Of a DNA stretch of 64,000 nucleotides, positions 1,616-19,815 are shown one piece after another; position 1 is the first letter of the stretch; every line of letters starts with the position of its first letter. Origin of the DNA: a virus; the IMG/VR virus record IMGVR_UViG_3300032116_000032, positions 72,113 through 136,112 of that record; one strand, given 5' to 3'. The notes under the pieces are model-generated. The model was not told the origin of the DNA. It saw only the letters and a program-made list of their open reading frames with translations, and made no database searches. A program made the position numbers and the translations under genes.

Positions 1616-2790
1616 TGGAATTACAACAATATAATTTCATAATTTCTCCTGAAAACATCAAGAGTGATTTAGTATTTGTTCCTTATACAGGGGAGACAGA
1701 TATAACGACAATCATAGACCCTTGTTGTTTAACAGCATTTACATTTAGTGCAGTAACAACAGGGACAACAGGTGTTTATTTACCAATGGAATATGTGTTA
1801 TCAGGAAATACAGGTGGTACATCATTTTTAACGGGATTAACGGTTAATTTAATGTTTACAGAATCTACTGTGGACATTGGGTATTACACGCCAACGGACG
1901 GTTTAATTTTACAACTTGACGTTTTAAATAATTTTATTGTAACAGCAAATACAATAAATCCTTACACTTTCACATTTTATAATACTTCAGATTTAGAGTT
2001 AATAAAATTCTTACAATTAGTTACTTATACTTTAGATTGGGGTGATGGATCAGCACCACAAGCAGTCTTAGGTATTTCACCAATAACACATACATATCCT
2101 GTTAGTCAAACATCTTATACAATAACACTTACGGCAAACTCACCATGGGGTATTTCAAAAGTTCAAAAAGATATTATTGTACCTTACACAAATGCAACAA
2201 TACCAAATCCAAACGGATCAATAACGTTTTATCCTGCGGGAGGTAGTTGGTCGGCAACACCTATAAGTTATGATTATATTTTTACAGGTGACTCAAACAC
2301 AAACATAATTGATTATTATTCCTACAATTATACATCAGTTCCATTTCCAATAACAGGTTTAACCTTATCTTCTGTTAACGACTTAGCACAATTTGGACCT
2401 AAAACAAATTTATATGATGGTAAATTTAAATTAGGAGTTCAGGTTACAGGAACAACAGGGGCTATTGGAACATTTTGGGGACCTGATCCGAGTAATTCTT
2501 ATACAGCATATACCATAAATGGTATGACTTATTTGGACTACGAAGATTATACCATTTATGTTACAGATTCTTATGGTTTAGTTCCTGGTGATATTGTTTT
2601 AACGGCATTAACAAAAAATGAGGCTTTATTAAATGTTATAGATCAACCTGAAATCATTACTAATGTTTTTGTTGAGAGAGGTAAATACACACCATTGGAA
2701 AATATACAAAGAATTGGGGAAGTTGATAATGTAGGAGACTTAGAAAAATACGGATACAAATATTTCAACATTGAAAAAGTATCAACATAA
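1615..2790 (+). CDS. virion protein with PKD/Ig-like motif
   Basis: YTLDWGDGS...THTY...YTITLTA matches the PKD-domain signature; Thr/Gly-rich. Confidence 0.6.
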   Translation: MELQQYNFIISPENIKSDLVFVPYTGETDITTIIDPCCLTAFTFSAVTTGTTGVYLPMEYVLSGNTGGTSFLTGLTVNLMFTESTVDIGYYTPTDGLILQLDVLNNFIVTANTINPYTFTFYNTSDLELIKFLQLVTYTLDWGDGSAPQAVLGISPITHTYPVSQTSYTITLTANSPWGISKVQKDIIVPYTNATIPNPNGSITFYPAGGSWSATPISYDYIFTGDSNTNIIDYYSYNYTSVPFPITGLTLSSVNDLAQFGPKTNLYDGKFKLGVQVTGTTGAIGTFWGPDPSNSYTAYTINGMTYLDYEDYTIYVTDSYGLVPGDIVLTALTKNEALLNVIDQPEIITNVFVERGKYTPLENIQRIGEVDNVGDLEKYGYKYFNIEKVST

Positions 2791-2817
2791 CTATTTATAA
2801 AAAAAAAGAAAAAACAA

Positions 2818-3723
2818 ATGGCTACAGGTAATTACGGAACTATTAGACCAGCGGATGTCAGTCCTGAAGACGTGGAAATCGTTATGGTTTATACACCATC
2901 AAGAGATGACACACAAAACTTCATTTTAACAACATTAAATGCTCAAGATGTCTTAAGACCATACTTCAATAATAATGCAACAGGAGGAAATACTGTTGAA
3001 GTTTTAGGTGGGTTGTATAGTTTAAAACTACCTGCCGATCAGTTCACAAGTTTGGGAATTTATACTTTAATGATTAGACCCGCACAAATTAGAACGACTA
3101 TCACAGATTGTGGTGTTTTATCTGCTCTACCAAATGTTAAAGGAATAGTAATTGATTTGAATAATGTACCAACAGAATATAGAAATAAATTTGTTAATCA
3201 AGGACTTGTAGGATTTAGAGTGGAATATTTGAATCCCGATGGAACAAAAATTCCTAACTTCTTTAGAATAATAACATCTTCATTCTACTGTGAACCAGTC
3301 ATTCAAAACTTAACTAACACAATTCAAAAATCTATTAGATATAGATATGTTGAAGGTGCAACAAATCTTTTATTTTGTACACTTTCACCATCTTCATCAC
3401 CAACAAACAAACCAAGTGCAACTCCGTATATCGGACAACCTAACCAAAGTATTATAATAAGTAATACTTACTTCAATCCAATATCAACAGAGATTGAAAT
3501 AGTAGATCAAGATATTTCAACTTTAGCGATAGCACTTTACGGTAACCAAACTAAATCTATTGAGGACGGTATTTACACTATTTACGACGCTGACAATAAC
3601 ATCTACCAACAATACAACTTGTATGAAATTAAAGATCAGTTTAATACTCTTCTTTATGAAGTTAGACAAAATCGTAATGAAAATATCGATTTCTCTAAAG
3701 CTTTTAATAATATTGTTGCTTAA
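2818..3723 (+). CDS. hypothetical virion/baseplate protein
   Basis: 301-aa ORF translationally coupled (TAATG) to the next gene. Confidence 0.55.
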   Translation: MATGNYGTIRPADVSPEDVEIVMVYTPSRDDTQNFILTTLNAQDVLRPYFNNNATGGNTVEVLGGLYSLKLPADQFTSLGIYTLMIRPAQIRTTITDCGVLSALPNVKGIVIDLNNVPTEYRNKFVNQGLVGFRVEYLNPDGTKIPNFFRIITSSFYCEPVIQNLTNTIQKSIRYRYVEGATNLLFCTLSPSSSPTNKPSATPYIGQPNQSIIISNTYFNPISTEIEIVDQDISTLAIALYGNQTKSIEDGIYTIYDADNNIYQQYNLYEIKDQFNTLLYEVRQNRNENIDFSKAFNNIVA

Positions 3724-6710
3724 TGGCCACACAGAAGTTTACTTGTCCACCTCAAAGTAGTGCCGCCAATGAATTCTCAAATAATTTGGTTGGAGTTCAG
3801 TTAGTCACTGGAGGAGGGTTAACGCAAGCAAATTTTAACTTCACAACAAACATATCCGAAAAACAGAATAGAACGTTTAATATTGGTACGTTTTCAGATC
3901 CAATAAATCTTGAGAGTATAAATATTGATAATAATATTGAAGCCGCTGAGATTTTAGCTAACAACTATAGAGTTTACCCAAATTATGATTTATCTCAAGT
4001 AACAAACTTTACCCAATATGGTTCTTTAGTAAAAAGATTTTCAGTTTCAATAACTAAGATAATCAACTTTTATCCTGCAGGATTAGAGGTTTCACCAAAT
4101 ACAAATAAGTTTATAACTCAAGAAACGGCATTTAATATAACTTACGATGCGGTAGAGGACGACACAACTTTCGAAGTTTCAGTATCATCTATTAGAAATC
4201 CATTTGACATAGATTACACCGTTAATGCTGAAACTAATATGTTGTTTAATGAGATGGAAGTTTCACCTCTGAGGAATATGAAATTGGAGTATAAAAAATA
4301 CGCCTTAGTTGTCAACGGCAATGAATATCCTGTAAATTATTTGTACCCTACGACAAGTAATTCATCTACATTAAAATTAATTGTTGATGGAAACCCATTC
4401 AACGGGAATTCAATATCTTACGATTATATTGTTATAAGACCAAATAACTATGAAGTTAATAAAGTATTTAATCTGAAGTTTGATCCTGTTGAGAATTTTT
4501 TATTAAATAGAAATATTAATCCTCCATATACCGCAACTTTTACAGTACCAAGAGAACAAGAAGATGGAACATTTAAGATAACAACAGAACTTGCCACATT
4601 CCCAAAATCAGGACTTTGGAACTTAGATATTGAATCACAAACATTTGATAACTACCTAACACAAATTAACGATTTTGCAATAAATCTTGATTCATATAAC
4701 ACGAATTTAGTTTCAAGATTTTTAACGACAGGTGCTCTGAAAGAGTTTGATACACCTGATCATAAATTTGAAAAACTTTTACAGATTTATGGTAGAAGTT
4801 TTGACGAAACTAAAGCATTCATTTCGGCGTTAGGTAATATTAATAGTGTTCACTATACTGTTAAAAATGATATACCGTCACAACTTTTGAAAAATTTGGC
4901 ACAAACATTAGGTTGGGTAACAAACTTTTCACCTATATCGAATGAAGAATTGTTACAGGCAGTTTTTACAACACAACCAAATACTTTTCCTGGTTTACAA
5001 ATAGGACCAACGCCTGAGGAAATTAATTATCAATTTTACAGAAACTTAATTATAAATTCTGCGTGGTTATTTAAATCAAAAGGAACAAGAAAATCTATTG
5101 AGTGTCTCTTGAGGATGGTTGGAGCTCCTGAGGCTTTAATTGATTTTAACGAACACATTTATGTTGCTGATCAAAGAATTAACATGAGTGAGTTTAATAA
5201 ACAGTACTTACAATTATCGGGAGGAACTTTCCTACAAGAATATCCTGTATTAGAAACTAACAACACATACTCAATACAAGGTATTCAGTACACTGGTTTT
5301 ACAACAACATTTGCAAATGCAACAGTTTTAACTACAAGAGAAGATTATCCTGTTGATGAATTTGGATGTCCTAAAATGCCAACACCAACGGAGGAATACT
5401 TTTTTCAAATTGGAGGAGGATGGTTCGAATCAACACCTCAACACAGGATGCCAGAATTTGTAATCCCAACAAATCAAGTATTCATAGGCGATAATCCTAA
5501 TTTCCAAACTCAACTTTTACCTTTCAACTATGGAGAGGAATATCTACAACTGTACAGACATTTCCCATATATGAATTTGGGGTATAAGATTAGAAAAGTC
5601 CAAGATAATAAGAAAAGTTGGAGTGATACCTCACCAACACAACGAGTAAGTTCAGATGGTGGATTTAATGCTTATTATGAAGTCGGTGAAGAATGTTTAA
5701 CATTGAATGTAAAAAATGTTGACATTATGATGAATCCCGCACAAGGTTTGGTTTATGATGTTTGGACAATGTCTAGACAATATAATTACCCAATACCTGA
5801 ACAAGGTTTATTCTACACTCCTGACACACCTTGTAGTGTACCAAATCCTTACCCAAGATATGGTGGAATAGATTGGACAACAATTATCCCAAAACCAAAA
5901 CAAAAAACTTTCTTTGAATTTGCTCAAACATTTTGGAGAAATATGGTTAACACTAGAAACCGACAATTTATTACCGATGGTAAAACTGGAGGTTACCCAA
6001 CACTACAATCAATATATTGGAAATACTTAGAATCTCAGACACAAGCAGGAATACCAAATGATAATTTTACATACCAAACTATGATAGATTATATTAATGG
6101 TATGGGTGACTATTGGATTAGAATGGTTGAACAAATGGTCCCTGCAACTACAATATGGAACACAGGAGTTAGATTAGAAAATTCAATATTTCATAGACAA
6201 AAATTTGTATGGAGAAGACAAGAAGGCTGTAAAATCGTTCCTGTTCCTTGTAAACCTTGTTCTTTGGCAACACAATTATTTGTATACGATTGCCCTGTAC
6301 AACAAGTGGTTTGTGGACTTTATCCTTGGAATAGTGACCCTACAATAACATCTATGGGTGCAGTCTTGAATGATACTTTAGATACTTTTTATAGCCAAAA
6401 TTCATTAAACCCAACCGATTGTTTACAGAATTCAATTGTAACAACTTGGAATGTAGATTTGAGGGTAAATGGATTTGTATTGGTAATATCACCTTTCTAC
6501 ACAGGTATTGGACCATTCAATATCCCAACTAATTCAGAATGGGTTGACGCTTTGAGTAGTACATTAAATAATTTACTAACCTCAGGGTATAGTTATAATA
6601 TTGATGAGGATAACGAACAAATAACAGTCTTTAACAATAATTGTCAACCTAATTTTGATGACTTTCAAATAAACATAGGACTTGAGTTCGAAATATATTG
6701 TAACGAATAA
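3723..6710 (+). CDS. baseplate wedge / tail protein (P2 gpI-like segment)
   Basis: DIPSQLLKNLAQTLGW...LFKSKGTRKSIECLLRMVG resembles the Tail_P2_I/baseplate wedge pattern. Confidence 0.6.
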   Translation: MATQKFTCPPQSSAANEFSNNLVGVQLVTGGGLTQANFNFTTNISEKQNRTFNIGTFSDPINLESINIDNNIEAAEILANNYRVYPNYDLSQVTNFTQYGSLVKRFSVSITKIINFYPAGLEVSPNTNKFITQETAFNITYDAVEDDTTFEVSVSSIRNPFDIDYTVNAETNMLFNEMEVSPLRNMKLEYKKYALVVNGNEYPVNYLYPTTSNSSTLKLIVDGNPFNGNSISYDYIVIRPNNYEVNKVFNLKFDPVENFLLNRNINPPYTATFTVPREQEDGTFKITTELATFPKSGLWNLDIESQTFDNYLTQINDFAINLDSYNTNLVSRFLTTGALKEFDTPDHKFEKLLQIYGRSFDETKAFISALGNINSVHYTVKNDIPSQLLKNLAQTLGWVTNFSPISNEELLQAVFTTQPNTFPGLQIGPTPEEINYQFYRNLIINSAWLFKSKGTRKSIECLLRMVGAPEALIDFNEHIYVADQRINMSEFNKQYLQLSGGTFLQEYPVLETNNTYSIQGIQYTGFTTTFANATVLTTREDYPVDEFGCPKMPTPTEEYFFQIGGGWFESTPQHRMPEFVIPTNQVFIGDNPNFQTQLLPFNYGEEYLQLYRHFPYMNLGYKIRKVQDNKKSWSDTSPTQRVSSDGGFNAYYEVGEECLTLNVKNVDIMMNPAQGLVYDVWTMSRQYNYPIPEQGLFYTPDTPCSVPNPYPRYGGIDWTTIIPKPKQKTFFEFAQTFWRNMVNTRNRQFITDGKTGGYPTLQSIYWKYLESQTQAGIPNDNFTYQTMIDYINGMGDYWIRMVEQMVPATTIWNTGVRLENSIFHRQKFVWRRQEGCKIVPVPCKPCSLATQLFVYDCPVQQVVCGLYPWNSDPTITSMGAVLNDTLDTFYSQNSLNPTDCLQNSIVTTWNVDLRVNGFVLVISPFYTGIGPFNIPTNSEWVDALSSTLNNLLTSGYSYNIDEDNEQITVFNNNCQPNFDDFQINIGLEFEIYCNE

Positions 6711-8908
6711 TGAGTATTTTAATTTATAATTATAGTGTAACGGGGGATTGTAGTAATACAGGTAGCGGTGCGGTTTCGTTTGATATAACTGGAAGTACAC
6801 CAACAGTATCTCCTTTTAGTATTTCAGATGCAACAGGTCAAGGATTATTACCACTTTCTGCAGCAACAAATACATACTCAGTAACTGGCCTTACAGGAGG
6901 CACATATTATGCTCAACTTACAGATTCTAGTACAGAAAAAGAAGTTTTAAACATTTATATTTCAACAGGCACTACAGCAACTATTGATTCGTCCAATACC
7001 ACTTGTGGACAGAATAATGGAACCATAACAGGTTTCACGTCTGGCGTCTATGGACTTGTTTCTTTTAATTTATATGATATAAGTAATAATTTAATTTCAG
7101 GTGTAACAACATCTAATTCTTATTATGAATTCACATCTCTTTCGGCCGGTACATATTACATTGTTGCAAACGATGGTGGTGGATGTACAGGAATAACCGC
7201 ATCTGTAATATTAAATCCTTCATCAGGTTTAACATATGGTGCATATGTTGTTGATGATGCTAGTTGTTTAGGTTCAGGTAGTGGTAAAATTTTCTTAACA
7301 GGGTTAACACCACCATTGTCGGCATACACAATAACTTGGAGTCCTAACGCTTTAGGGCAAACAGGATCAACAATAACAGGACTAACATCTGGATCTTATG
7401 TTGCTACTGTTACTAATTCAGTAGGATGTACGTTAAGTCAGTCATTTACTGTAAACACTATTCCGCCATTAACATCAGGTGGTTTTATTGTGGTATCACA
7501 ACCTTCTTGTTTTGCCAATGATGGTGAAGTGGAGTTTATTGTTGTTGGTGGTACTGCACCATATTTTTTTAGTGGATCATCAGGTCAAGTTGAAATAACA
7601 TTTGATACTTCCGTAACTTTTACGGGACTATCTTCAGGATTATACTCATTTTTTGTGACAGATTCAGGTTTATGTACAATTTATGATTCTGTAAGTTTAA
7701 TAACACCAAACTCTTTTAGTACTGTTGCAGTAACAACAACTAACTCAACTTGTTCTGTAAATGATGGTAGTATTAATGTTTTAGTTGATGGAGGACTTAG
7801 TACTGCAACCAACTTACAAATTTCGGTATCTGGAACAACAGGTATAAGTCAAATAGGATTGTTTGGTAGTTCTAATGAAACATTTAATGGTCTCGGAAGT
7901 GGAACATATATAGTAACAGTTGTATCTGCAGGTTGTACCTATACCGCATCAACAGTAATAAATTCTGTTAGTTTATATAGTGCAACTACTGAAGTAACCG
8001 GAACTACATGTGGATTGAATAATGGGATTCTTGTTGTAAGTGCGTCAACAGGAGGAACTTTCCCATACACATATTCATTAACAGGACCAAGTTACAACCC
8101 AAACACTACTACAAGCCAGTTCAACACGTTTACTAATTTAGCTAACGGAAATTACGTGTTAACAATACAAGATACCTCATCACCACCTTGTATACAAACA
8201 TATGCGGTTAATATACCATATAGTCAAAGTGTAAACTTTAATCTATATCCAAACCAACCTGTAAATGGTAATGACGGATCTATAACTGCGTTTATCACAA
8301 GTGGTGAACCACCTTTCACTTTAACTTGGAGTGGAGGAACTATAGGACTTCAAACAGGAAGTACTGTTACAGGTCTTACTTCAGGTCCTTACAGTCTAAC
8401 TGTAACTGATGCTAGTGGTTGTACACTAACAAAATACGCAACATTAACAGGTACTAAAAAATACACTAATTATTTATACTATAATGTTTGTGATAATACA
8501 TTTACAGATAGTGGGTTAGTAACTAAAAGAACTATACGAGCAATGTATTTAGAAGGGTTCAATGACTTAACTAGTGGTGATACAAACTGTATTATAAATT
8601 CTGCAACTTTTACGATTGGTGCTGAAGTTGGTGGACAATCAGCAGAAACTATATTTTATACATCTTCTGGTTCTACAGATTACCCAAATGATATACTATG
8701 GGCAGACGCAATATCGACAATACTTAACGACTTTGTTGGAATATCAGATGTTACTATAGACCTACCTTCAAATAGAATTATCATAAAAACAAACTGCGAA
8801 GAAATCACTAAAAACTGTGGTCCACAAACAATAAATCCATTACAAGATACTGAAATAAAAGTCAACTTATTGATTGACTATGACATATCTTGTGTAAGTT
8901 GTAGTTAA
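6710..8908 (+). CDS. virion adhesin-like protein with SprB-like beta repeats
   Basis: Repeated units C..NDG.I....GG..PY.(F/Y).W...TGLTSG.Y..TVTD..GC resemble the SprB repeat (PF13573). Confidence 0.65.
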   Translation: MSILIYNYSVTGDCSNTGSGAVSFDITGSTPTVSPFSISDATGQGLLPLSAATNTYSVTGLTGGTYYAQLTDSSTEKEVLNIYISTGTTATIDSSNTTCGQNNGTITGFTSGVYGLVSFNLYDISNNLISGVTTSNSYYEFTSLSAGTYYIVANDGGGCTGITASVILNPSSGLTYGAYVVDDASCLGSGSGKIFLTGLTPPLSAYTITWSPNALGQTGSTITGLTSGSYVATVTNSVGCTLSQSFTVNTIPPLTSGGFIVVSQPSCFANDGEVEFIVVGGTAPYFFSGSSGQVEITFDTSVTFTGLSSGLYSFFVTDSGLCTIYDSVSLITPNSFSTVAVTTTNSTCSVNDGSINVLVDGGLSTATNLQISVSGTTGISQIGLFGSSNETFNGLGSGTYIVTVVSAGCTYTASTVINSVSLYSATTEVTGTTCGLNNGILVVSASTGGTFPYTYSLTGPSYNPNTTTSQFNTFTNLANGNYVLTIQDTSSPPCIQTYAVNIPYSQSVNFNLYPNQPVNGNDGSITAFITSGEPPFTLTWSGGTIGLQTGSTVTGLTSGPYSLTVTDASGCTLTKYATLTGTKKYTNYLYYNVCDNTFTDSGLVTKRTIRAMYLEGFNDLTSGDTNCIINSATFTIGAEVGGQSAETIFYTSSGSTDYPNDILWADAISTILNDFVGISDVTIDLPSNRIIIKTNCEEITKNCGPQTINPLQDTEIKVNLLIDYDISCVSCS

Positions 8909-9205
8909 ATGCCCTCACAAGTTACAATAGTATCGGCAATAGGTATTACACCACCATTTAGTGGAACCGCTTGTGATGTCTATGGAAATCAATGTTCATA
9001 TATAGGAAGTGGAACAACTTTTCCAATAACATTTACATTACCATCACAATTCAATACGGCTCCATCATTACAATTAACATTACAAGATTCAATTGGATGT
9101 TTAGTGTCTGAAATAATTTATTGTTCAACCGAAGGATTACCAAAACAATTCCAAAATTTACAATATTACTTTTTTATGGATGGAACTCAGTTTAATTTTC
9201 AGTAA
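8909..9205 (+). CDS. small Cys-containing virion protein (paralog of 19817-20038)
   Basis: Shares MP.Q.TI...PF...CD...C.YI...P..F.LP...DS..CLV.E with the 19817-20038 product. Confidence 0.6.
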   Translation: MPSQVTIVSAIGITPPFSGTACDVYGNQCSYIGSGTTFPITFTLPSQFNTAPSLQLTLQDSIGCLVSEIIYCSTEGLPKQFQNLQYYFFMDGTQFNFQ

Positions 9206-9210
9206 CCAAA

Positions 9211-9218
9211 ATATTTAT
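9211..9218 (+). promoter_or_regulatory. ATATTTAT upstream motif (putative late promoter)
   Basis: Exact motif 8 nt before the fibre ATG; recurs before many genes. Confidence 0.5.
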
Positions 9219-9226
9219 TATACGAT

Positions 9227-12178
9227 ATGGCATTATTAACGGATCAAATACAAGCTACTGGAGTTTCTCTAACAGACTTAATTCACATAGTAATAACTGG
9301 TGATACTTCTCAAAATCCTGCGGGATCATCTTTTAAAGCATCAATTTCTCAACTTGTTAGTTTAATTAGTGGTTCTACAGGAACAAACGGTACATCAGGA
9401 ACTAATGGAAGTAGTGGTACAAATGGAACTAACGGTACATCAGGAACTAATGGGTCTAGCGGTACTAATGGGTCTAGCGGTACTAATGGAACAAACGGTA
9501 CTTCAGGAACAAATGGATCTAGCGGTACTAATGGAACAAACGGTACTTCAGGAACAAATGGATCTAGCGGTACTAATGGAACAAACGGTACTTCAGGAAC
9601 AAATGGATCTAGCGGTACTAATGGAACAAACGGTACTTCAGGAACAAATGGATCTAGCGGTACAAATGGAACAAATGGATCTAGCGGTACAAATGGAACT
9701 AATGGTACAAGCGGTCTAAGTGGTATTGGGTTATTTTTACCATTATCAGGGGGCACGGTTACGGGTAATACAATATTTAATGCCGGTTTAAGTGCGATAA
9801 CAATATCGGCAACAACCTATCAAAACTTACCAAGTGATGTGATAATTATTGACTCAACACAGATTCAATCAGGATTTACAGGTGGAGTCTTGTTCCAAAG
9901 TTCAGCAAGTACGGTAAGTCAAACTACTGGATTTACTTGGGATAATGTAAATAAAAGGTTGGGAATTGGGACTAACACCCCTCTCTATGACTTAGACGTT
10001 TATGGGTCTATCTATCAAAAAACCGGAGAATTATTAATTACATCCACAAGTGGTGTTAATAAAGAAGGTCCATTTATAGCATCAGACGGCGGAACTAACA
10101 GAACCATTCAATTAGGAATTTCAGACAATTCAACTGTACCTGTCGGCATTGATATGTTTGTAACTAACAATACATTCCCGCCAAGTTACATGAACTTTAG
10201 AGTAAACGATGCTGATCTAGTTAGGATGTCTGGTAGTTCTGTTATAATTAGCGGTCTTACATATACAAGTGGTATAACCTCTACATCTAAAATAACATTT
10301 CCACAGCTGACAATTAATAGTTCATACACCATGACTGATAATGATTTTATGATTGATGTTACAGGAGGAACATTCAACGTACAATTACTATCTGCCGTAG
10401 GAAGACAAGGAAGAATAGTTGTTATTAAAAATAATGGTGGAGGTGCAGTTACGGTAGTCCCTTATGGTAGTGAAACTATAGATCTAGCACCATTTGTTAT
10501 TTTAGGTGAAACAAACTCATTACAATTAGTAAGTAATGGTAGTTTTTGGGTTGCAATGTCTTATAATATCTCAACAGTAAACTCATCAACAGGTGTTTTT
10601 GAATTTAGTGGTTTGACAAAGGCAAGTAATACCACATTTAATGTTGCCCCTGTTAAAGGTTGGATAGTTGATGATACAACTAATCCGTTGAGTCCCCAAC
10701 TTTTATTTGTTTATTTTACTGGAGGAACGTATACTGATAGTTTTGTAACAACGGCTTTTGAGACATTTGTTTATTTAACAAGTGGTGCAACAATTGGACA
10801 ACAATCAACACCACTAACTGAACAACAAAGAAGACAAAATATATTTTTAGGTAAAATAGGACACCCTGAAAAAGTTTCAATTAACTTAGTGTTTTCACAA
10901 CCTGATTTTGTTTTATCACCATTATCTCAACTTCGTGATATGTTTGTACCTATTAATTTAATTAATGGGGGTGTATATCCATCAGCCAACGGAGCAAACT
11001 TAAAATTCAACACAAGTGCCGGGTTTATATATGGATTAGGTATTAATTTTGCATCGAATACATTGAACCCAAATGCATTATCGATATCAGGAACAAGCCC
11101 TTGTACATTCCAATATAGAACACAAACAGGAGGAACGGTTACAAATGTTACAGATATTGACCCACTTAACTATGATGTTGGGGGTGTTATAACTCCAATC
11201 ACAGGTACTAAAGCCACAAACCAAAGAATTTACCTATTGCAAAATGGACAATTTAGAATTCAATATGGTCAAACCGAATATAACACTTTAGTACAGGCGA
11301 TAGAAGCATTACAAACAGAAACATTCACAATATTCCCCAATTTTGTAAATAATGCCGTTCTTATTGGTATATTAACGGTGTTAAGTACCGCAACGGATTT
11401 GACCGATACAACTAAAGCAAGATTCTTTTTTGCGTCTAAGTTTGGTGAAACTGTAGGTGCTACGGGGGGTGTGTCAACAACAAACCTACAACAAGCTTAT
11501 AATAACTCAGTACAACCTGAAATAACAACCAACTCAACTTTAGGTGCGTTCTCAATCAAAAATGGTACGGGTAATCCTGATGCCACCACAAATTTATTTG
11601 AAGGAATTAATTCTGCAAATACTTTAACATCGGTAATCACTGCAAGAGGTACTATCACAGGGTCTAGTATTACTACAAATGGTGCTGTGACGGGAGCTAC
11701 CGTAATTGGTGATGTTATATCGGGTAACACAGTGTCGGCCTCAACACTTAACCTTGCAGGATCACAAATAAATACTGCTTGGACATCTTATGTACCTGTT
11801 TTGACCGCAAGTGTAACTAATCCTGTAATTGGTAATGGAACCGTAGAAGGTTGGTATAAAATAGTTGGTAAAACATGTTTTGTGAGAGGAAATATTGTAA
11901 TGGGATCAACAACAACATTTGGTGCAGGAGAATGGTATGTGTCAGTACCATTTACCGCGGCTCATGCTGATGCAATATTATTAAATGCTGACATATTAGA
12001 TAATGGGACCGCTTGGTATAATGCATTTATAGCGGGTGCAAGAGCAGGATTTAATACCAAAGCGGCAATACAATATCAAAATACAGGAGGAACTACAGAT
12101 AGTGTTTCACCAAGTACCCCATTTACTTGGACAACTGGTGATAGATTTTTATGGAATGGAAGTTATGAAATCGCATAG
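9227..12178 (+). CDS. tail fibre protein with collagen-like (G-X-Y) domain
   Basis: 40 uninterrupted G-X-Y triplets, then FLPLSGGTVTG, RLGIGTNTP..LDVYG and a C-terminal WTSYVP...GWYKIVGKTCFV fibre-tip-like domain. Confidence 0.8.
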   Translation: MALLTDQIQATGVSLTDLIHIVITGDTSQNPAGSSFKASISQLVSLISGSTGTNGTSGTNGSSGTNGTNGTSGTNGSSGTNGSSGTNGTNGTSGTNGSSGTNGTNGTSGTNGSSGTNGTNGTSGTNGSSGTNGTNGTSGTNGSSGTNGTNGSSGTNGTNGTSGLSGIGLFLPLSGGTVTGNTIFNAGLSAITISATTYQNLPSDVIIIDSTQIQSGFTGGVLFQSSASTVSQTTGFTWDNVNKRLGIGTNTPLYDLDVYGSIYQKTGELLITSTSGVNKEGPFIASDGGTNRTIQLGISDNSTVPVGIDMFVTNNTFPPSYMNFRVNDADLVRMSGSSVIISGLTYTSGITSTSKITFPQLTINSSYTMTDNDFMIDVTGGTFNVQLLSAVGRQGRIVVIKNNGGGAVTVVPYGSETIDLAPFVILGETNSLQLVSNGSFWVAMSYNISTVNSSTGVFEFSGLTKASNTTFNVAPVKGWIVDDTTNPLSPQLLFVYFTGGTYTDSFVTTAFETFVYLTSGATIGQQSTPLTEQQRRQNIFLGKIGHPEKVSINLVFSQPDFVLSPLSQLRDMFVPINLINGGVYPSANGANLKFNTSAGFIYGLGINFASNTLNPNALSISGTSPCTFQYRTQTGGTVTNVTDIDPLNYDVGGVITPITGTKATNQRIYLLQNGQFRIQYGQTEYNTLVQAIEALQTETFTIFPNFVNNAVLIGILTVLSTATDLTDTTKARFFFASKFGETVGATGGVSTTNLQQAYNNSVQPEITTNSTLGAFSIKNGTGNPDATTNLFEGINSANTLTSVITARGTITGSSITTNGAVTGATVIGDVISGNTVSASTLNLAGSQINTAWTSYVPVLTASVTNPVIGNGTVEGWYKIVGKTCFVRGNIVMGSTTTFGAGEWYVSVPFTAAHADAILLNADILDNGTAWYNAFIAGARAGFNTKAAIQYQNTGGTTDSVSPSTPFTWTTGDRFLWNGSYEIA
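9371..9730 (+). repeat. collagen-coding tandem repeat; four exact 45-bp copies at 9481-9660
   Basis: Unit TACTAATGGAACAAACGGTACTTCAGGAACAAATGGATCTAGCGG starts at 9481, 9526, 9571 and 9616 and encodes TNGTNGTSGTNGSSG. Confidence 0.95.
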
Positions 12179-12232
12179 ACTTTAAAATTCAAAATTAATT
12201 CACTTTACCTTATTTTAATTTAATTTTCCTAT

Positions 12233-13213
12233 ATGGAAAATATGTTATTTGTTTCAGCACAACCCGATGTCCCCTACTTTATATGGCAAATAAAATTGTA
12301 TGTTCATAATTTTATTGAAAAAGGAATCAACCCAAATCAAATACATGTTGTTTTAGGGTTAGTCAATAATGTAAACACACCATCTAAAGAATCAGAACAA
12401 CTTAAAGAGTTAGGGGTTAATGTGCATTACTTTGTTGATCAAAGATCTAAAAAACATTATATACCAAGTATTAAACCATACCTCATCTCAAAGTGGATAC
12501 AGTCAAATCCTGATTATGGAAAATTATTTTTCCTTCATGATGCTGACATTATTTTTAAAGAATTACCGAGTTTTGATCGGTTGTTAAAAGATGAGGTTAG
12601 TTATTTATCTGATACAATAGGATACATTGGATATAACTATATTATGGATTGTTGTGAAAGATATGAACAACAACACCCCAATTCAGATAAAGGACAACTT
12701 ATAAGTGAAATGGCAGATGTAATTGGTGTTGACGTTGAGACAATCAAAATTAATCAAGAAAATTCTGGTGGAGGACAATACCTAATCAAAAATACAAATT
12801 GTGAGTTATGGGATAAAATCTATAGAGACTCAACTACTATGTATGACAAGATGTTGGATTATCAAAAAAGATTCCCGATAAATCCAGGTCAAATACAATT
12901 TTGGACTGCTGAGATGTGGTCATTATTATGGAATTTATGGTTGTATAATATTGAAACTAAAGTTACAGAAGATCTTGATTTTTCTTGGGCAACGGATACC
13001 ATAGAAACTTATGAAAAAAAACCAATACTTCATATGGCTGGTGTGACTGATAACCTAAGAGCTACAAAATTCTACAAAGGTGATTACATTAATATAAACC
13101 CAATTTCTAAGTTGAGAGAAAACCCTAATCATTTTGATTACATAGATAAAGATAGTTCGACAATAAAATATATCGATAATATGAAATCTTATATTCAAAA
13201 ATACAACATATGA
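12233..13213 (+). CDS. GT-A glycosyltransferase, HPAT/SERGT (GT95/GT96)-like
   Basis: N-terminal FVSAQPDVPYFIWQ, DxD motif (FFLHDADIIF), GGGQYLI, and WTAEMWSLL resembling W..EMY of plant peptide O-glycosyltransferases. Confidence 0.65.
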   Translation: MENMLFVSAQPDVPYFIWQIKLYVHNFIEKGINPNQIHVVLGLVNNVNTPSKESEQLKELGVNVHYFVDQRSKKHYIPSIKPYLISKWIQSNPDYGKLFFLHDADIIFKELPSFDRLLKDEVSYLSDTIGYIGYNYIMDCCERYEQQHPNSDKGQLISEMADVIGVDVETIKINQENSGGGQYLIKNTNCELWDKIYRDSTTMYDKMLDYQKRFPINPGQIQFWTAEMWSLLWNLWLYNIETKVTEDLDFSWATDTIETYEKKPILHMAGVTDNLRATKFYKGDYININPISKLRENPNHFDYIDKDSSTIKYIDNMKSYIQKYNI

Positions 13214-13230
13214 TTATTTATTGTTAATAG

Positions 13231-15309
13231 ATGGTAGAAAATTGTTATATATTATATTCTTGCGACGGAAGTTACGAACCGATCATTTCAAACTTTAGTG
13301 GGTTGAGCGCTTATTCGGCATCATACATCTCTGTAAATTCGATAGATTCAGTAACAATAGAGGAGACTTGTTTTTATGTGTTAAGTTTAGGTGTGATAGA
13401 CTGTACCATAACAAACGAAATAACAATTTCAACAGGGATAACATGCAATTGTCAATGTTATTGTTATTTTATAAGATCTGTGGTTCAAACAACTGATGTT
13501 ACATATGTTAATTGTAATGATGAAATTATTGTCGATACTATCCAAGAAGGATTAACTTATAATATTTGTAGTAAAGTTTATCCACAGTTTGATAATCAAG
13601 TACAAATCCCAATTAAATTAACTGACATTTGTGTTGATAACCAATGTCCACCAACAATCCCAACTGTAAAACCAACAAACGAATGTGATGTTATTACTAT
13701 ATTCCCTATGGGAGTTACTTGTATAACACAACAACCTTCATCAGAAAGAAATTTTGACGGGGCGGTTGAATTAGTTGTAACAGGAGGAACGCCACCTTAT
13801 ACTATATTTTGGGAAGTTGGAAGTTTTGCGCCAGCACTTACTAATCTTGGTGTTGGAGAATACTCAGCATCTGTTACGGATTATTATGGTGATTTCTCAG
13901 CATTTACAACTTGTGTTTTAACTGCTGAAACTATAAATTATTCAGGTATGTGTTTTGTATTAACAGGTGTAGTAGAGGATCAGTTAGTATACATTAATTC
14001 AGAAGTAAAAGGGTTTAAAAATACCAAACCATACTTTGAAATACAATATGGTGTAAATCTTTTGGGTTACGTTTTTTGGGACCCAAGTTCGTCGAATAAA
14101 TGGTTTTTTTGTCAAACATTAGATTGTCAATTATCACCATATAATACACTTATATTACCTGATGGATTATATCCTACAGGAACAACAGGTGATTGGCAAG
14201 TTGTTTCAGACACACCGTATTTAATTGTTGAATCAACAATTGGTAATTGTTCGCCACCAACAATACCTAAAGAACAGTTTCCTCTTTGTGCAACAATAGT
14301 TTTAAGATCGACAAAACCTGGTTCTGCAACAATCACATCACAGGTCCAACTTGACCCAAGTGTCGAAATAAATGGAGAACCTAGTTGGTCATCATCAACA
14401 GATCAATATGTTGTATATTGGAATAGCGGATCAACACCTGCTCAGTGGGTTATGACAGGGTTTACTAACCCATCAACATTGGTTTCAAATAATGATCCTT
14501 CATATCCGCCTGTAAGTAATTGGCAGGTTTATGGTTCACCTGAAGTTTATAGTGTTGATATTACACAAGGTGAATGTTCAGAATCATACATTGTATTAGC
14601 GTCTGCAATTGTAAATGATGCTCTATGTGGAGACAATGGTAATATTACCGTAAGTGCTTCGGGAGGAGATGCACCATATCAATATTCAATAGACGGAGGA
14701 ATATCATATCAACCATCACCAATATTTAGTAATGTTTTACCAGGAACTTACAGTGTATTTGTAAAAGACGTAAACACAACAATAGGTTCGTTTGGACCAG
14801 TGGTAGTTAATAACATACCAACCACCATTTATAATGTAACAATGAATGTAAATTACAATAATAATACTTTTACGTTAACCGCACCATCGTTACCTGTTGG
14901 AGCTACCTTAACAGTGGACGTGGTTATGTCATCAGTATTCAATTATTACCCACAAAGTTTAAGTCCAATACCTACATATAATAATTTTACAACTATTAAT
15001 GGTGTAGGTCTTATGACAAACATTAATACGACAGCTAATACATATCCTTTAGGTGGACCTTGTAGTGTTCCTGGACCATTGAATAATACTCAAATTAGTA
15101 ATACGTATTTAAACACAATAACATTAACAAGCGGTCAAGTTGTTACAGGTAGTACTACAAATAGTATTATTAATGCTCCTGTTACATCTTGCTCAAATGC
15201 TTTAGGGTATTATACACTATCCATAGCTAATGCAATGATAAACAACTGTCAATGTTGTGATGCGAATCTAATTAATACGGTTCCACCAGCACCACAATCA
15301 GTTTTATAA
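13231..15309 (+). CDS. Cys-rich virion protein with SprB-like repeats
   Basis: DGAVELVVTGGTPPYTIFW...TNLGVGEYSASVTD and GNITVSASGGDAPYQYSIDGG...VLPGTYSVFVKD; many Cys clusters. Confidence 0.6.
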   Translation: MVENCYILYSCDGSYEPIISNFSGLSAYSASYISVNSIDSVTIEETCFYVLSLGVIDCTITNEITISTGITCNCQCYCYFIRSVVQTTDVTYVNCNDEIIVDTIQEGLTYNICSKVYPQFDNQVQIPIKLTDICVDNQCPPTIPTVKPTNECDVITIFPMGVTCITQQPSSERNFDGAVELVVTGGTPPYTIFWEVGSFAPALTNLGVGEYSASVTDYYGDFSAFTTCVLTAETINYSGMCFVLTGVVEDQLVYINSEVKGFKNTKPYFEIQYGVNLLGYVFWDPSSSNKWFFCQTLDCQLSPYNTLILPDGLYPTGTTGDWQVVSDTPYLIVESTIGNCSPPTIPKEQFPLCATIVLRSTKPGSATITSQVQLDPSVEINGEPSWSSSTDQYVVYWNSGSTPAQWVMTGFTNPSTLVSNNDPSYPPVSNWQVYGSPEVYSVDITQGECSESYIVLASAIVNDALCGDNGNITVSASGGDAPYQYSIDGGISYQPSPIFSNVLPGTYSVFVKDVNTTIGSFGPVVVNNIPTTIYNVTMNVNYNNNTFTLTAPSLPVGATLTVDVVMSSVFNYYPQSLSPIPTYNNFTTINGVGLMTNINTTANTYPLGGPCSVPGPLNNTQISNTYLNTITLTSGQVVTGSTTNSIINAPVTSCSNALGYYTLSIANAMINNCQCCDANLINTVPPAPQSVL

Positions 15310-15335
15310 ATTGAATATAAGAATATTTACAATAA

Positions 15336-17840
15336 ATGGCTTACATAATTAAAAATACATCTGGTTTAGTTAACACTCGTGTAACGGATACAGGTAGACA
15401 AAAAATGTCTGAAGGTAATTTTAATATCTTGTACTTTGCAGTAGGGGATAGTGAAGTTTCATACAATGAATTACCATCAACATACAATCAGGCTAATACT
15501 GTTGTATTAGAGCCACAGTTCAATGCGCAGAATAGTTCAGGTGTTCCTGAGTCAAATAGACAGTACATCAAATATCCATATTTAGTTGATGAGGGACAAA
15601 CAAACATATATGGTATTCCTTTTATGGATTCAGGTATTGAATCTGTTTATAATAGAGCAGCCATGAGAGGATTTTTCACAGGAAATACAACAGCGTCTAC
15701 TATAGATTGGAAAGCATTAGTTAACAACACATATGTTATCACACCAAATTATGTAGTTAATATGTCTACGTTGAACGGAACAAATCAAATAAGTGTACAA
15801 AGAATGGACTGTAACGTTCAAAATAATAATACACCTAATGTTGGAGATTTTATAACAATATATTACGATGGAAGGGCAGAAACTGATTGTTCTTGTACTA
15901 ATTTCCCTACACCAACACCTACACCTTCATTGTATAGTACACCAACACCTACACCAACACCAACAGGTACAAATTCAATACCATGTGCTTCACCAACACC
16001 AACACCTTCACCAACGCATACACCATGTTTAACACCAACACCAAGTGCTCAATGTCCCGTACCACCACCACCTGATTGTTTGAAAGATGTGGTAAGTTGT
16101 TTTTCAATTTTAACTTATAGAATTGTTGAAGTTTGTGGTGATGTTTTAACGTTAGATAGAGAGACACCTGATTTTACAAATTTATCTATTGATTGTTGGG
16201 CGAGAACATTAATTTATCCACCACAGATGGTTCCTTTGTATGATAGTTTTACACCTGAACCACATTGGAGTAAAAGTGTGATTGACTTCGAATCGGTTTG
16301 TGATACTGATCAGTTTGATGTTAAAATATGGAATATGAACATTCCTTGGACTGAGAGTCCTGCTGGTTTAGCGTCGGCTCAATTTCAAGACTATACAAAA
16401 TTTGGTTCTATTAATTATATAGGACAAAAAGAATATTTTGGATACACTTCATCTGATGGTCAAACATCTACGGACGATGTGTATTACTACAATTCTTTTG
16501 GTGAAAAAATTGTAGTTACACCTGAAGAACAAAAAACTATAGCAATTATACACTATACTAACCAAACCATTGATTTCTTCTATGGTGAAAAATTTGCATT
16601 AGAACCATACGACACTCAAAACCCTGAGAACACCCAAGGTCAAGCAAGAAATTTCAAGTTACATATGCCAACAATAATGTGGCATAAAAATCCTGAATGT
16701 TGTTTTGGACAAACGTTTTGGGTTGATCCTCCTGGATTTGACAATCAAAATTTATTTCAAGTTCAATATACTAAATCTAAGATTTCACAACAAATGAATC
16801 AACCTGGACTTAGGTATTATAATCTTTGGGATACATTTGCACAACCTAATGGTCAACCAAGTAGAGTAGGTAAAGTTTACCCCGATTCAAAACTAATTGT
16901 TATTGACGACGAAGAATTGGTGGCCGCTCTATCATATAAATCAAATAGAAACTGGACATTACCGGCACCACAAGTGTCTTTAATAACACCAAACACGTGT
17001 GGAACTTCAAATACTACAGGTGTTTTGACAGGAGGAGGAGAAACACTTTGGGTGACTTATAGATTATCAAATTCAAACACATTTACAAATTCATTACATA
17101 GTAATTACTACACAAGTGTCGTTGGAACTGAAAATGTCTGTTCACCTGAAACACCAAAGAATGTTGCAATTAGATTTGGTGGAGATTTCCCATGTTTAGT
17201 ACAACCTGGATTCTCACCAACAACTACAACCACAACATTTAATCCTGTAACCACATCAACAACTACAATTAATCCACCATATACAACAACTACAACAACT
17301 CAGTGTCCTGTATGTACTGTTCCTGCTGGATTCTACGCACAACAGTTCCAAGTATTGGCTCAAAAAACATTATCGGGAGTAAGACCTGATCCGGCACAAT
17401 GGAGGTTAATTGATTTTACAAGTCAAATTGAACAATACTTCATTAATGGTTATGTAACGCAAGAATCTTTAACTGCAACTACTTTTGTTGTGACTGCAGA
17501 AAATTATGGAAGTGCACCTATATACAATCTAAACAATTACATAAGTTTAGTTCCTAATGGTGCTACAGGACAACAATTAAATTTTGGTGATGAATACTAT
17601 TTCTACGGTAATTTAGAAACCGACATTCAAGCAACATTGTATGAGATGAAATATAAAATTAACTTAAGTGATAATGAATTCTTACTCTCTCAAAACCCAA
17701 CTTGGACCCAAGGAACACCATCTTATGTTACAGAAATCGCTCTTTTAGATGAAAATAAAGATGTTTTAGTTATGTCTAAAATGCAATCACCTATCTTAAG
17801 ACAAGGAATTCAACAGTACGTTATCAAATTAGATTTCTAA
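15336..17840 (+). CDS. tail/baseplate-associated protein with (PT)n and poly-Thr linkers
   Basis: C-terminal VTEIALLDENKDVLVMSK resembles the fibre-baseplate attachment motif; PTPTPTP and TTTTT tracts. Confidence 0.55.
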   Translation: MAYIIKNTSGLVNTRVTDTGRQKMSEGNFNILYFAVGDSEVSYNELPSTYNQANTVVLEPQFNAQNSSGVPESNRQYIKYPYLVDEGQTNIYGIPFMDSGIESVYNRAAMRGFFTGNTTASTIDWKALVNNTYVITPNYVVNMSTLNGTNQISVQRMDCNVQNNNTPNVGDFITIYYDGRAETDCSCTNFPTPTPTPSLYSTPTPTPTPTGTNSIPCASPTPTPSPTHTPCLTPTPSAQCPVPPPPDCLKDVVSCFSILTYRIVEVCGDVLTLDRETPDFTNLSIDCWARTLIYPPQMVPLYDSFTPEPHWSKSVIDFESVCDTDQFDVKIWNMNIPWTESPAGLASAQFQDYTKFGSINYIGQKEYFGYTSSDGQTSTDDVYYYNSFGEKIVVTPEEQKTIAIIHYTNQTIDFFYGEKFALEPYDTQNPENTQGQARNFKLHMPTIMWHKNPECCFGQTFWVDPPGFDNQNLFQVQYTKSKISQQMNQPGLRYYNLWDTFAQPNGQPSRVGKVYPDSKLIVIDDEELVAALSYKSNRNWTLPAPQVSLITPNTCGTSNTTGVLTGGGETLWVTYRLSNSNTFTNSLHSNYYTSVVGTENVCSPETPKNVAIRFGGDFPCLVQPGFSPTTTTTTFNPVTTSTTTINPPYTTTTTTQCPVCTVPAGFYAQQFQVLAQKTLSGVRPDPAQWRLIDFTSQIEQYFINGYVTQESLTATTFVVTAENYGSAPIYNLNNYISLVPNGATGQQLNFGDEYYFYGNLETDIQATLYEMKYKINLSDNEFLLSQNPTWTQGTPSYVTEIALLDENKDVLVMSKMQSPILRQGIQQYVIKLDF

Positions 17841-17894
17841 TAAAACTACAATTTTTATCTTCATAGTTTATAATATAAATAAAATAATAGTTTT

Positions 17895-18503
17895 ATGGCA
17901 AAAAATTTAAAAAACTCCCCCAAAGTTTTGGGTCTTGATATTTCCACAAAAACCATAGGGTGGGCATTGTTTGATATTAAAACACAAGAATTACTTGAAT
18001 TAACTCACATCTCACCAAGACCAAAAATGGAAAAAGATGAGGATGATAAATTAAAAGAATTATTGTTGAAATCAGAAATATTTGCCGAAAAACTTAAACA
18101 ATATAAAGATTTAGGAATTGTTAGAATTATCATAGAAGAACCACTTTTGAATTCTAATAACATTTATACAATACAAACACTATTAAGATTTAATAGTTTT
18201 GTGTTTAAAGAAATCTATAATATAATGGGAATTGTTCCTGAATTTATTTCAACTTACAACTCAAGAAAATTTGCATTCCCAGATTTAGTTCAAGAAAACG
18301 ATAAGAAAAAATTTGTATTATTTGGTGGATTACCAAAAGACGTGGATAAGAAAATGATCATTTGGGAAAAAGTTGCAAAAAGAGAACCCCAAATTACATG
18401 GCATTATACAAAAAACAATACATTAAAGAAAGAAAATTTTGATCAAACAGACGCCTATACTTGTGTTTTAGGATTTATGAGATCAAAAGAAATTTGGAAA
18501 TAA
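17895..18503 (+). CDS. RuvC-like Holliday junction resolvase
   Basis: RNase H-fold acidic motifs VLGLDISTKTIGWALFD, IIIEEP and DQTDA. Confidence 0.8.
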   Translation: MAKNLKNSPKVLGLDISTKTIGWALFDIKTQELLELTHISPRPKMEKDEDDKLKELLLKSEIFAEKLKQYKDLGIVRIIIEEPLLNSNNIYTIQTLLRFNSFVFKEIYNIMGIVPEFISTYNSRKFAFPDLVQENDKKKFVLFGGLPKDVDKKMIIWEKVAKREPQITWHYTKNNTLKKENFDQTDAYTCVLGFMRSKEIWK

Positions 18504-18528
18504 TATCTTTTATATAACCGATAATTTG

Positions 18529-18560
18529 AAATATCGTCTTTTTAGACGATATTTTTTTTT
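18529..18560. terminator. bidirectional intrinsic terminator
   Basis: Perfect 11-bp stem AAATATCGTCT/AGACGATATTT with T-tract, between convergent genes. Confidence 0.8.
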
Positions 18561-18561
18561 A

Positions 18562-19815
18562 TTAACAAATTGCGCCTGTATCTGTAGCGGTAAAGTTAGG
18601 TGAAGTTGACGTTGGAATTGTAATTGAACAAACGTAAACGGATGTATAACCGTTTAATCCACCTGTAGATACTGTTCCATCACACTCGTAGTAGTCATAT
18701 TTAACAAAACTTGGACTATTATTCTCAACGTACCATCTTGTAAGGATACAAGGAGGTAAAGTTGTAGTTGTGGTTGTAGTACTTGTTGATGTTGTGGTCG
18801 TAGTTGGTTGTATATTAGAAAAACAAGCTAAACAAGAACCATCAACTCTTGAACCTATTTCAGTTAATAATACAACTGTGTCAACCCCACTTATGTTTTC
18901 AAACAAACCTTCAAATGTAACACAAGTTTGTTGACCGTTAATTTCTGCAAAATATACGTAATTTTCTAAAGGAGTATTTCCTGAAATTAAAACTAAATCT
19001 GAAGTATAATAATCTACACCATTGAAACAATCACTAAATCTTTTACTATTAGCACATTGAATTACTTCAGTAAACGTATTGAATATAACTTCGCCTGAAA
19101 AATTACAAGGATAGTTAATAGTTGTTGTGGTAGTCGTTGTTGGTGCTATTGTGGTTGTAGTTGTGGTATATGTGACCGCAATAGCCGTAATTGACTTTCC
19201 ACTACAAGGATTAGGAAGTACTGTTGTCGTAGTAGTCGTTGTGGGGGCTGCTGTAGTTGTTGTAGTTGTTGTAGGAACTAAACAATCAAAAATGGCGCTA
19301 AAATCAAATGTAGCACATGGATCCACAGTTGTGGTTGTTGTTACACAAATTCCGGTATACGCTACCGTGTCGTCAAAATCAGGACAATCTGATGTGCTTC
19401 CAAAAGGACCAAACTGATCACATGGGTCACCTAAGTTTTGTGCTAAACACCATCTTGTTTCACCTGTTGAATAAAACATGAAATATCCGGTGGTTTGACC
19501 TGTAAAATAAGATTCACCATCGTAAATTCCTGCTAACTGATAAGTGTCATCATAATTAGTGTCGTTTTCAACACAAAAAAACTGAGGACAAGTACAACCT
19601 GAACTACCAATAATTGTACCTGAACCATCTATATCATATACATCTATACCATCTGAATAGTATGATAGTAATGCTGGACTACTACATATTGAGTCTAAAT
19701 AAACAATGTCACCTACAGTTAAACCACTACCATAAAGAGTAAAACTCAAAGTAGATCCACAGGAACTGTTAGGGTCTGAGGCGGATGAAAATAAACCTAA
19801 ATTATTACAAGACAT
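18562..19815 (-). CDS. Cys-rich virion protein with mucin-like poly-Thr tracts
   Basis: 417-aa ORF with several TTTTT(T) runs separating Cys-rich modules. Confidence 0.6.
   Translation of the reverse strand: MSCNNLGLFSSASDPNSSCGSTLSFTLYGSGLTVGDIVYLDSICSSPALLSYYSDGIDVYDIDGSGTIIGSSGCTCPQFFCVENDTNYDDTYQLAGIYDGESYFTGQTTGYFMFYSTGETRWCLAQNLGDPCDQFGPFGSTSDCPDFDDTVAYTGICVTTTTTVDPCATFDFSAIFDCLVPTTTTTTTAAPTTTTTTTVLPNPCSGKSITAIAVTYTTTTTTIAPTTTTTTTINYPCNFSGEVIFNTFTEVIQCANSKRFSDCFNGVDYYTSDLVLISGNTPLENYVYFAEINGQQTCVTFEGLFENISGVDTVVLLTEIGSRVDGSCLACFSNIQPTTTTTSTSTTTTTTTLPPCILTRWYVENNSPSFVKYDYYECDGTVSTGGLNGYTSVYVCSITIPTSTSPNFTATDTGAIC

Follow-up and report, generated by a model that had tools for sequence, protein, structure and literature searches.

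The window analysed here places a glycosyltransferase-like gene between a collagen-like fibre gene and a set of Ser/Thr-rich proteins, which raises the question of what such an enzyme does in the structural module of a phage and on which acceptor it acts. The gene is the open reading frame (ORF) at 12233–13213 of a 64-kb window, which is the whole stretch of DNA analysed and corresponds to positions 72113–136112 of a 136-kb viral contig from IMG/VR; its product is named P0001. An initial annotation of the window had read P0001 as a plant-type peptide O-glycosyltransferase modifying the phage's own fibres or baseplate. The results presented here indicate that P0001 probably O-glycosylates Thr-rich tracts of virion proteins in the cytoplasm, an assignment in which the acceptor comes from genomic context.

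The three motifs named in the initial annotation were all present in the translation of the ORF, directly downstream of the collagen-like fibre gene: PYFIWQ at residues 13–18, HDADII at residues 102–107 (D103-x-D105) and WTAEMW at residues 224–229. Among 54 homologues (29–55% identity), residues D105 (54/54), H267 (54/54), W229, K282 and Y76 were invariant, D103 was kept in 53/54, and W18, Q19 and M228 were conserved in at least 50; because of this conservation the motifs are not attributed to chance. The profile phrog_4417, of unknown function, matched P0001 over its full length (E 1.8e-67, residues 4–319 against profile positions 1–290 of 293), and an exhaustive search with P0001 gave 839 matches (E ≤ 0.001) among representatives of clusters formed at 50% identity. 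Nothing significant was found in Pfam, NCBIfam or the PDB sequences, and no Pfam family, Glyco_transf_8 included, was matched at E ≤ 0.1. A protein 67% identical to P0001 was also found in a 5.3-kb contig binned as Candidatus Woesearchaeota (L006); the contig is most likely a piece of phage DNA that was mis-binned, and the gene not archaeal.

The AlphaFold2 model of P0001, built with an alignment of the 54 homologues drawn from cluster representatives, had a predicted local distance difference test (pLDDT) value of 97.7 and showed a GT-A fold. Foldseek matches of this model were obtained at E 1.8e-7 to 1e-5, and the structural Z-scores were 15.6 for glycogenin, 14.6 for the Skp1 alpha-galactosyltransferase (6mw8), 14.1 for UGGT, 13.9 for both LgtC and GlyE, and 13.7 for WbbM. 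As judged from the model, P0001 is closest to the retaining GT8-like group of GT-A enzymes, its best matches being structures of families GT8, GT24 and GT6. The GT8-type enzymes (glycogenin, LgtC, GlyE, Gat1 and the GT24 domain of UGGT) matched 210–243 residues of P0001 with Z 13.9–15.6 at 7–13% sequence identity, and P0001 carries extra helical insertions, with 326 residues versus about 250 in glycogenin. GT8 enzymes build their metal site from a DxD motif and a downstream His, and the DxD and downstream invariant His of P0001 may form a similar site. The fold opens with a strand at residues 5–11, and no N-terminal hydrophobic segment, anchor or signal peptide was found in the sequence and the model, no dedicated transmembrane predictor having been used; since strand 1 already occupies these residues, P0001 is predicted to be cytoplasmic.

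The initial annotation had set its reading against transferases of lipopolysaccharide (LPS), exopolysaccharide or DNA, and the structural comparison went its way, as glycogenin, the Skp1-glycan galactosyltransferase, UGGT and GlyE act on proteins or protein-bound glycans, with LgtC (lipo-oligosaccharide) and WbbM (O-antigen) tied with them. Because the GT8-like group holds both protein-directed enzymes and enzymes of lipo-oligosaccharide and O-antigen synthesis, the fold does not decide the acceptor. From the two ties it could be argued that P0001 acts on a host envelope polysaccharide, LPS, a teichoic-type polymer or phage DNA, its position in the fibre module being incidental, and phage transferases in such roles are well known according to a review cited in PMC12619734. 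Neither DNA-hypermodification nor polysaccharide-export genes were found within the window, and the absence of an anchor or signal peptide from P0001 also speaks against such an acceptor. DNA glucosyltransferases known from phages adopt the GT-B fold instead. Together with four independent genomic contexts that indicate peptides or proteins (see below), this makes a non-protein acceptor highly improbable.

The similarity to the plant enzymes was examined with profiles. The Pfam family HPAT (hydroxyproline O-arabinosyltransferase, PF23452, gathering threshold 23.9 bits) did not match P0001 at E ≤ 0.1 or at E ≤ 10; its model touched 2/54 members of the P0001 family (E 0.09) and 0/84 fused forms of that family at E ≤ 0.001, and neither the HPAT nor the DUF7164 model matched the phage genome. 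Neighbours of P0001 in the ESM Atlas included clusters in which 10% of the members carry Pfam HPAT. For the HPAT profile, Pfam-HPAT members scoring 88–101 bits were taken from Actinomycetota genomes, and relatives of these members bear the JGI names "peptidyl serine alpha-galactosyltransferase" or "hydroxyproline O-arabinosyltransferase". When P0001 was compared by hhalign as a single sequence with two strong bacterial HPAT members, the match obtained was weak (E 0.01). Alignment of the P0001-family profile with the HPAT profile gave a probability of 91.2% (E 9.9e-7, 249 columns, all motifs in register), which rose to 96.1% (E 3.5e-9, 272 columns) after five more divergent HPAT domains were added, the reversed-sequence controls remaining at 0.8–1.0%. 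The elements in register in both families were Y..WQ, DxD, W.[AS][DE]MW, the His and K..Y. By profile comparison, P0001 is a distant homologue of the HPAT/SGT1 family, the link running through the bacterial Pfam-HPAT members, and the connection to GT95 and GT96 that had been drawn from short motifs is thereby upheld with the motifs colinear. The label "plant-type" fared less well, as the distant HPAT homology stood and the term proved too narrow, both the HPAT and the phrog_4417 families being common in bacteria and phages.

Plant HPAT-type enzymes have a type II membrane anchor and a location in the secretory pathway, and plant HPAT and SGT1 glycosylate peptide Hyp or Ser directly. The catalytic domain of the plant and algal HPAT (GT95) and SGT1/SERGT1 (GT96) enzymes, compared via bacterial Pfam-HPAT, is homologous to P0001. 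The plant enzymes act on Pro/Ser/Hyp-rich, extensin-like peptide tracts, whereas the likely acceptor residue of P0001 is Thr, not Hyp, and P0001 is predicted to be soluble, lacking the Golgi membrane anchor. Domain fusions of the P0001 family involve PF11397, O-FucT, GT2, GT6, GT7C and radical-SAM/SPASM, and those of the HPAT family a prolyl-4-hydroxylase-type (P4H-type) oxygenase, PF11397 and O-FucT, so that PF11397 and O-FucT are partners common to both. In two metagenomic proteins (P0370 and P0371) a P4H-type oxygenase (PF13640), HPAT (PF23452) and the GlcNAc-transferase family PF11397 are joined in one polypeptide, a layout that corresponds to a hydroxylate-then-glycosylate assembly line in a single protein.

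With the acceptor left open by the fold, the genes beside P0001, among them those with Pro-Thr (PT) and poly-Thr tracts, were compared in 80 related viral loci. The (GTN/GTS/GSS)n, (PT)n and poly-Thr tracts reported in the initial annotation for the fibre protein, P0003 and P0004 (Table 1) were confirmed in the translations. In P0003 the (PT)n tract spans residues ~188–246 and the poly-Thr tract residues ~624–659, and both were found at the same positions in 46/47 full-length homologues (50–99% identity); because their position is kept, the tracts are considered to be selected and not compositional noise. Homologues of the SprB-repeat +1 neighbour have Ser/Thr runs of at least 8 in most relatives. 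P0003 is accordingly the best candidate acceptor within the window, and P0004 is a further candidate, its place in the virion being suggested by its position. No PHROG, Pfam or isolate-phage match was obtained for P0003 or P0004, tblastn of P0003 and of the 3723–6710 product against isolated phages gave no match, and the pLDDT of the AlphaFold2 model of P0003 was only 47. Other large proteins of the phage genome carry similar Thr-rich tracts. A RuvC-like Holliday-junction resolvase gene (17895–18503, PHROG E 1e-5) stands between the fibre module on one side and the minus-strand P0004 gene and the primase/exonuclease block on the other.

Table 1. Position of the P0001 gene and of its Ser/Thr-rich neighbours in the 64-kb window.
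Feature	Position	Strand	Basis or tract
P0001, predicted soluble GT-A glycosyltransferase, 326 aa	12233–13213	+	phrog_4417 family; distant HPAT (GT95/GT96-related) homologue by profile comparison
Tail-fibre protein, proline-free collagen-like stalk	9227–12178	+	(GTN/GTS/GSS)x40 at nt ~9368–9727
SprB-repeat (Ig-like adhesin repeat) protein, conserved +1 neighbour	13231–15309	+	Pfam match; loci of relatives
P0003, 834 aa, conserved +2 neighbour	15336–17840	+	(PT)n at nt ~15897–16073; poly-Thr at nt ~17205–17312
P0004, Cys-rich, 417 aa	18562–19815	-	Four poly-Thr linkers between Cys-containing modules; 29% Ser+Thr
SprB-repeat protein, 29% Ser+Thr	6710–8908	+	Fibre module downstream of baseplate wedge genes

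The gene immediately upstream of P0001 encodes about 40 unbroken Gly-X-Y triplets (Pfam Collagen E 3e-16, with tail-fibre PHROG matches), and its stalk is a possible acceptor. It might even be the dedicated one, a reading close to the emphasis of the initial annotation, with P0001 modifying Thr of the GTN/GTS triplets; as in BclA or in the cuticle collagen of Riftia, this would stabilise a triple helix that lacks proline. Besides the adjacency of the two genes, a second collagen-like gene of the same genome is likewise followed by a transferase (PF11397), and fusions of PF11397 with P0001-like domains occur elsewhere. Within 4.5 kb upstream of the transferase, however, a collagen-like gene was present in only 8/72 related loci, all 72 of which keep the transferase and the PT/poly-Thr neighbours, and no collagen repeats are involved in the Bacillota or Bacteroidota contexts described below. 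Collagen adjacency was therefore rejected as a conserved feature, the BclA-type pairing of a transferase with a Thr-rich collagen-like protein being seen in this window and in only those 8/72 loci, and a dedicated role on the stalk appears quite unlikely. The synteny with collagen fibres that the initial annotation proposed to check was thus not upheld, and its proposal that the phage modifies its own fibres stands in part, the collagen fibre not being the conserved partner and the PT/poly-Thr neighbours being conserved (46/47).

Several further observations were made on these stalks. The closest relative (L100, transferase 98% identical) has no collagen repeats upstream and slightly more distant relatives have 8–74 triplets; the missing repeats could reflect either an assembly that collapsed them or a stalk that is gained and lost quickly. 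Three proline-free collagen-like proteins are encoded in the phage genome, one in the window and two upstream. In the GTN/GTS repeats every Asn lies within an N-G-T/S sequon (window 9368–9727; genome 13581–14060 and 1–1131), and N-glycosylation of the stalks is conceivable.

The contexts of P0001 homologues in other phages and in bacteria were compared in fetched loci, with our own ORF calls and pooled Pfam tallies. In phages and prophages of Bacillota, the gene directly upstream of the homologue ended in a tail of five or more Thr residues in 16/18 loci, against 16/298 of the other ORFs (Fisher p 2.6e-16, kinship between loci being ignored). The gap between this structural gene and the homologue was −4 to +68 nt. 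Among the poly-Thr-tailed upstream products are gp50 of Enterococcus phage phiFL1A and orf13 of Lactococcus phage 1706, both of them major tail proteins, and the same pairing was found in Staphylococcus phage PT94, Clostridium phage phiCTP1 and Lactobacillus phage Bacchae. In phiFL1A there is no annotated transferase besides the P0001 homologue gp51, and an initiating role is favoured for this reason. Literature searches gave no paper on the P0001 family, nor any that links poly-Thr tails to a paired transferase. In Bacchae (L005, 5057–7161), three small genes (169, 116 and 65 aa) flank the homologue, and all end in repeated poly-Thr/TTVKP-type tails, which suggest that the Herelleviridae of lactobacilli have several dedicated decoration proteins with Thr tails.

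The chromosomal homologue of Bacteroidota is a two-domain protein of 500–590 aa. Among 119 ORFs of 20 loci, the neighbours included Peptidase_C39 (10), LanC (9), redoxins (8) and ABC transporter (7) genes, and LanB, HlyD and VKOR genes were also enriched; these homologues sit in clusters for ribosomally synthesised and post-translationally modified peptides (RiPPs). The C39 exporter, the thioredoxin/redoxin/VKOR genes and precursors with a double-glycine leader recall the glycocins, in which sublancin is made with the transferase SunS, the C39-ABC exporter SunT and Bdb oxidoreductases. This likeness belongs to the Bacteroidota homologues and not to the phage gene; SunS is a GT2 enzyme of a family different from that of P0001, and LanC and LanB are additionally present at the Bacteroidota loci. 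Small ORFs with double-glycine leaders (...VLGG, ...IEGG) were seen near these homologues (L046:2253–2498 (+), L024:4182–4376 (+), L038, L045, L062 and L079), one precursor core having 13 consecutive Thr and another ending KTTTVPTTPAPTA. Such ORFs with C39-ABC, LanC, LanB and redoxin neighbours resemble an undescribed class of glycosylated RiPPs.

At an actinobacterial locus of Microthrix, a true HPAT gene and a gene for an oxygenase of the prolyl-4-hydroxylase type accompany a P0001-like domain that is fused to PF11397. At this locus (L011, a metagenome-assembled genome of Ca. Microthrix, ~2000–12600), the fusion is a 1012-aa protein with a P0001-like domain, an F5/8 type C domain and PF11397; the cluster also has the 2-oxoglutarate-dependent oxygenase of the prolyl-4-hydroxylase type, the Pfam-HPAT gene, a sulfotransferase and methyltransferases, and resembles a bacterial pathway of hydroxyproline glycosylation. 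Taken together, four independent contexts (Bacillota phages, Bacteroidota RiPP clusters, Microthrix and the domain fusions) favour protein or peptide acceptors.

The viral contig was rated 46% complete by CheckV, and for this reason the genome is estimated at ~300 kb; near-complete relatives have 274–318 kb. The phage is a myovirus, with sheath, tube and baseplate-wedge PHROGs upstream, the baseplate-wedge homologue lying 7–8 kb ahead of the window start. Glutamine synthetase and DnaJ genes and SprB repeats were found, and by its gene content the phage fits the profile of the aquatic, Bacteroidota-infecting moraphages (Perez-Hernandez et al. 2025, PMC12619734), which it resembles in the ~300 kb genome, in glutamine synthetase and DnaJ, and in Bacteroidota signals (SprB repeats). 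The moraphage core genome has four glycosyltransferase orthogroups, and virion glycosylation was named as one possibility (PMC12619734), in a report that contains no analysis of the P0001 family (phrog_4417), of the HPAT relationship or of Thr-rich acceptors. Upstream of the window, the same genome encodes a 969-aa fusion with a central part that matches TibC, a protein heptosyltransferase (E 1.8e-68), the second collagen-like gene directly followed by the PF11397 transferase, and GT9 and HtrL-like genes. PF11397 was found in 5/5 related genomes and the TibC-like fusion in 3/3 near-complete ones.

These enzymes are other candidate initiators, and P0001 could accordingly extend a glycan, the PF11397 enzyme or the TibC-like heptosyltransferase placing the first sugar on the protein and P0001 adding the next one to it. 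Gat1/AgtA extend the glycan in the Skp1 pathway, and GlyE does so on serine-rich repeat proteins. The close structural matches of P0001 to 6mw8 (Z 14.6), UGGT (14.1) and GlyE (13.9) are in agreement with such a role, as is the frequent fusion of P0001-type domains to a second transferase (PF11397, GT2, GT6, GT7C or O-FucT). On the other hand, small siphophages of Bacillota such as phiFL1A have the homologue as their only annotated transferase, directly after the poly-Thr-tailed protein; the related plant HPAT and SGT1 transfer sugar straight to Hyp or Ser of peptides, and the top structural match, glycogenin, glycosylates protein directly. Glycan extension is on balance unlikely, and direct glycosylation of Thr-rich virion tracts by P0001 is retained as the probable function.

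In the proposed mechanism P0001 would be a soluble, cytoplasmic, metal-dependent GT-A glycosyltransferase, probably with the retaining mechanism that the GT8-like fold suggests. Besides P0001, no transferase and no sugar-nucleotide pathway gene was found within the window, so the sugar donor presumably comes from the host, as a nucleotide sugar that P0001 would use. A prolyl hydroxylase was likewise not found within the window. Before assembly, P0001 would attach O-linked sugar to Thr (and Ser) residues within the (PT)n and poly-Thr tracts of the fibre and baseplate-associated proteins. The conserved neighbour P0003 is the first candidate acceptor, and the SprB-repeat +1 neighbour, P0004 and the Thr-rich collagen stalk are further possible ones. 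On the virion this would give glycosylated linkers of a mucin-like kind, whose benefit may lie in stiffening, protease resistance, shielding or adhesion. Of this scheme, the fold, the catalytic motifs, the HPAT homology and the associations between genes are shown, and the acceptor, the sugar, the initiating role and the benefit are inferred. P0001 would belong to a wider set of glycosylation enzymes kept in this lineage of jumbo phages, together with the TibC-type protein heptosyltransferase fusion and the PF11397 transferase.

Several points weigh against this function. The loci in the poly-Thr-tail enrichment test are phylogenetically non-independent, and Chryseobacterium phage MA9V-3 has the gene with neighbours devoid of obvious C-terminal Thr tails. 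In the present phage the Thr-rich tracts form linkers inside the proteins, where the Bacillota phages have C-terminal tails, and P0003 and P0004 are assigned to the virion from position only. The top structural matches of the model include glycan extenders (the Skp1 galactosyltransferase and UGGT) as well as LgtC and WbbM, and P0001, falling below the Pfam HPAT threshold, is by sequence a distant relative and not a member of that family. Glycosylation of these or related virions is, moreover, a prediction from genes.

Virion O-glycosylation has been reported in the mycobacteriophages Che8, Corndog and Myrna (Freeman et al. 2023, Cell Host Microbe 31:1216, as cited in PMC12619734), and within the literature searched it has been shown experimentally for mycobacteriophages only. 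In these phages the transferase genes are part of the structural module or border on it; here, likewise, the gene belongs to the fibre module, which follows the baseplate wedge, and in the Bacillota relatives it lies directly after the major tail protein. The mycobacteriophage acceptors are surface-exposed virion tracts, and in the Bacillota relatives the corresponding tracts are C-terminal tails of capsid and tail-tube proteins (16/18), whereas those of the present phage, unlike the mycobacteriophage type, are internal linkers of fibre-module proteins. The host phyla also differ, a Bacteroidota jumbo myovirus and Bacillota siphophages being involved, and the enzyme belongs to the unannotated family phrog_4417.

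There is about an even chance that phrog_4417, together with its homologues in bacteria, makes up a sister family of GT95/GT96 that is widespread, has no name as yet and is dedicated to the O-glycosylation of poly-Thr and Pro-Thr tracts, giving mucin-like virion coats in phages of at least two phyla and glycosylated RiPPs in Bacteroidota. If this holds, a family now labelled "hypothetical" (839 cluster representatives) would receive a name, and the plant enzymes that glycosylate extensins would be tied to a large prokaryotic and viral family. The pairing of a poly-Thr tail with its transferase would offer a simple tag-enzyme pair for glyco-engineering. Sugar-coated virions would be common among the abundant aquatic jumbo phages of Bacteroidota, among phages of Enterococcus, Lactococcus, Lactobacillus and Staphylococcus, and among many prophages, and the glycan coat would affect the immune recognition of therapeutic phages, the sticking of virions to mucus and particles, and virion stability.

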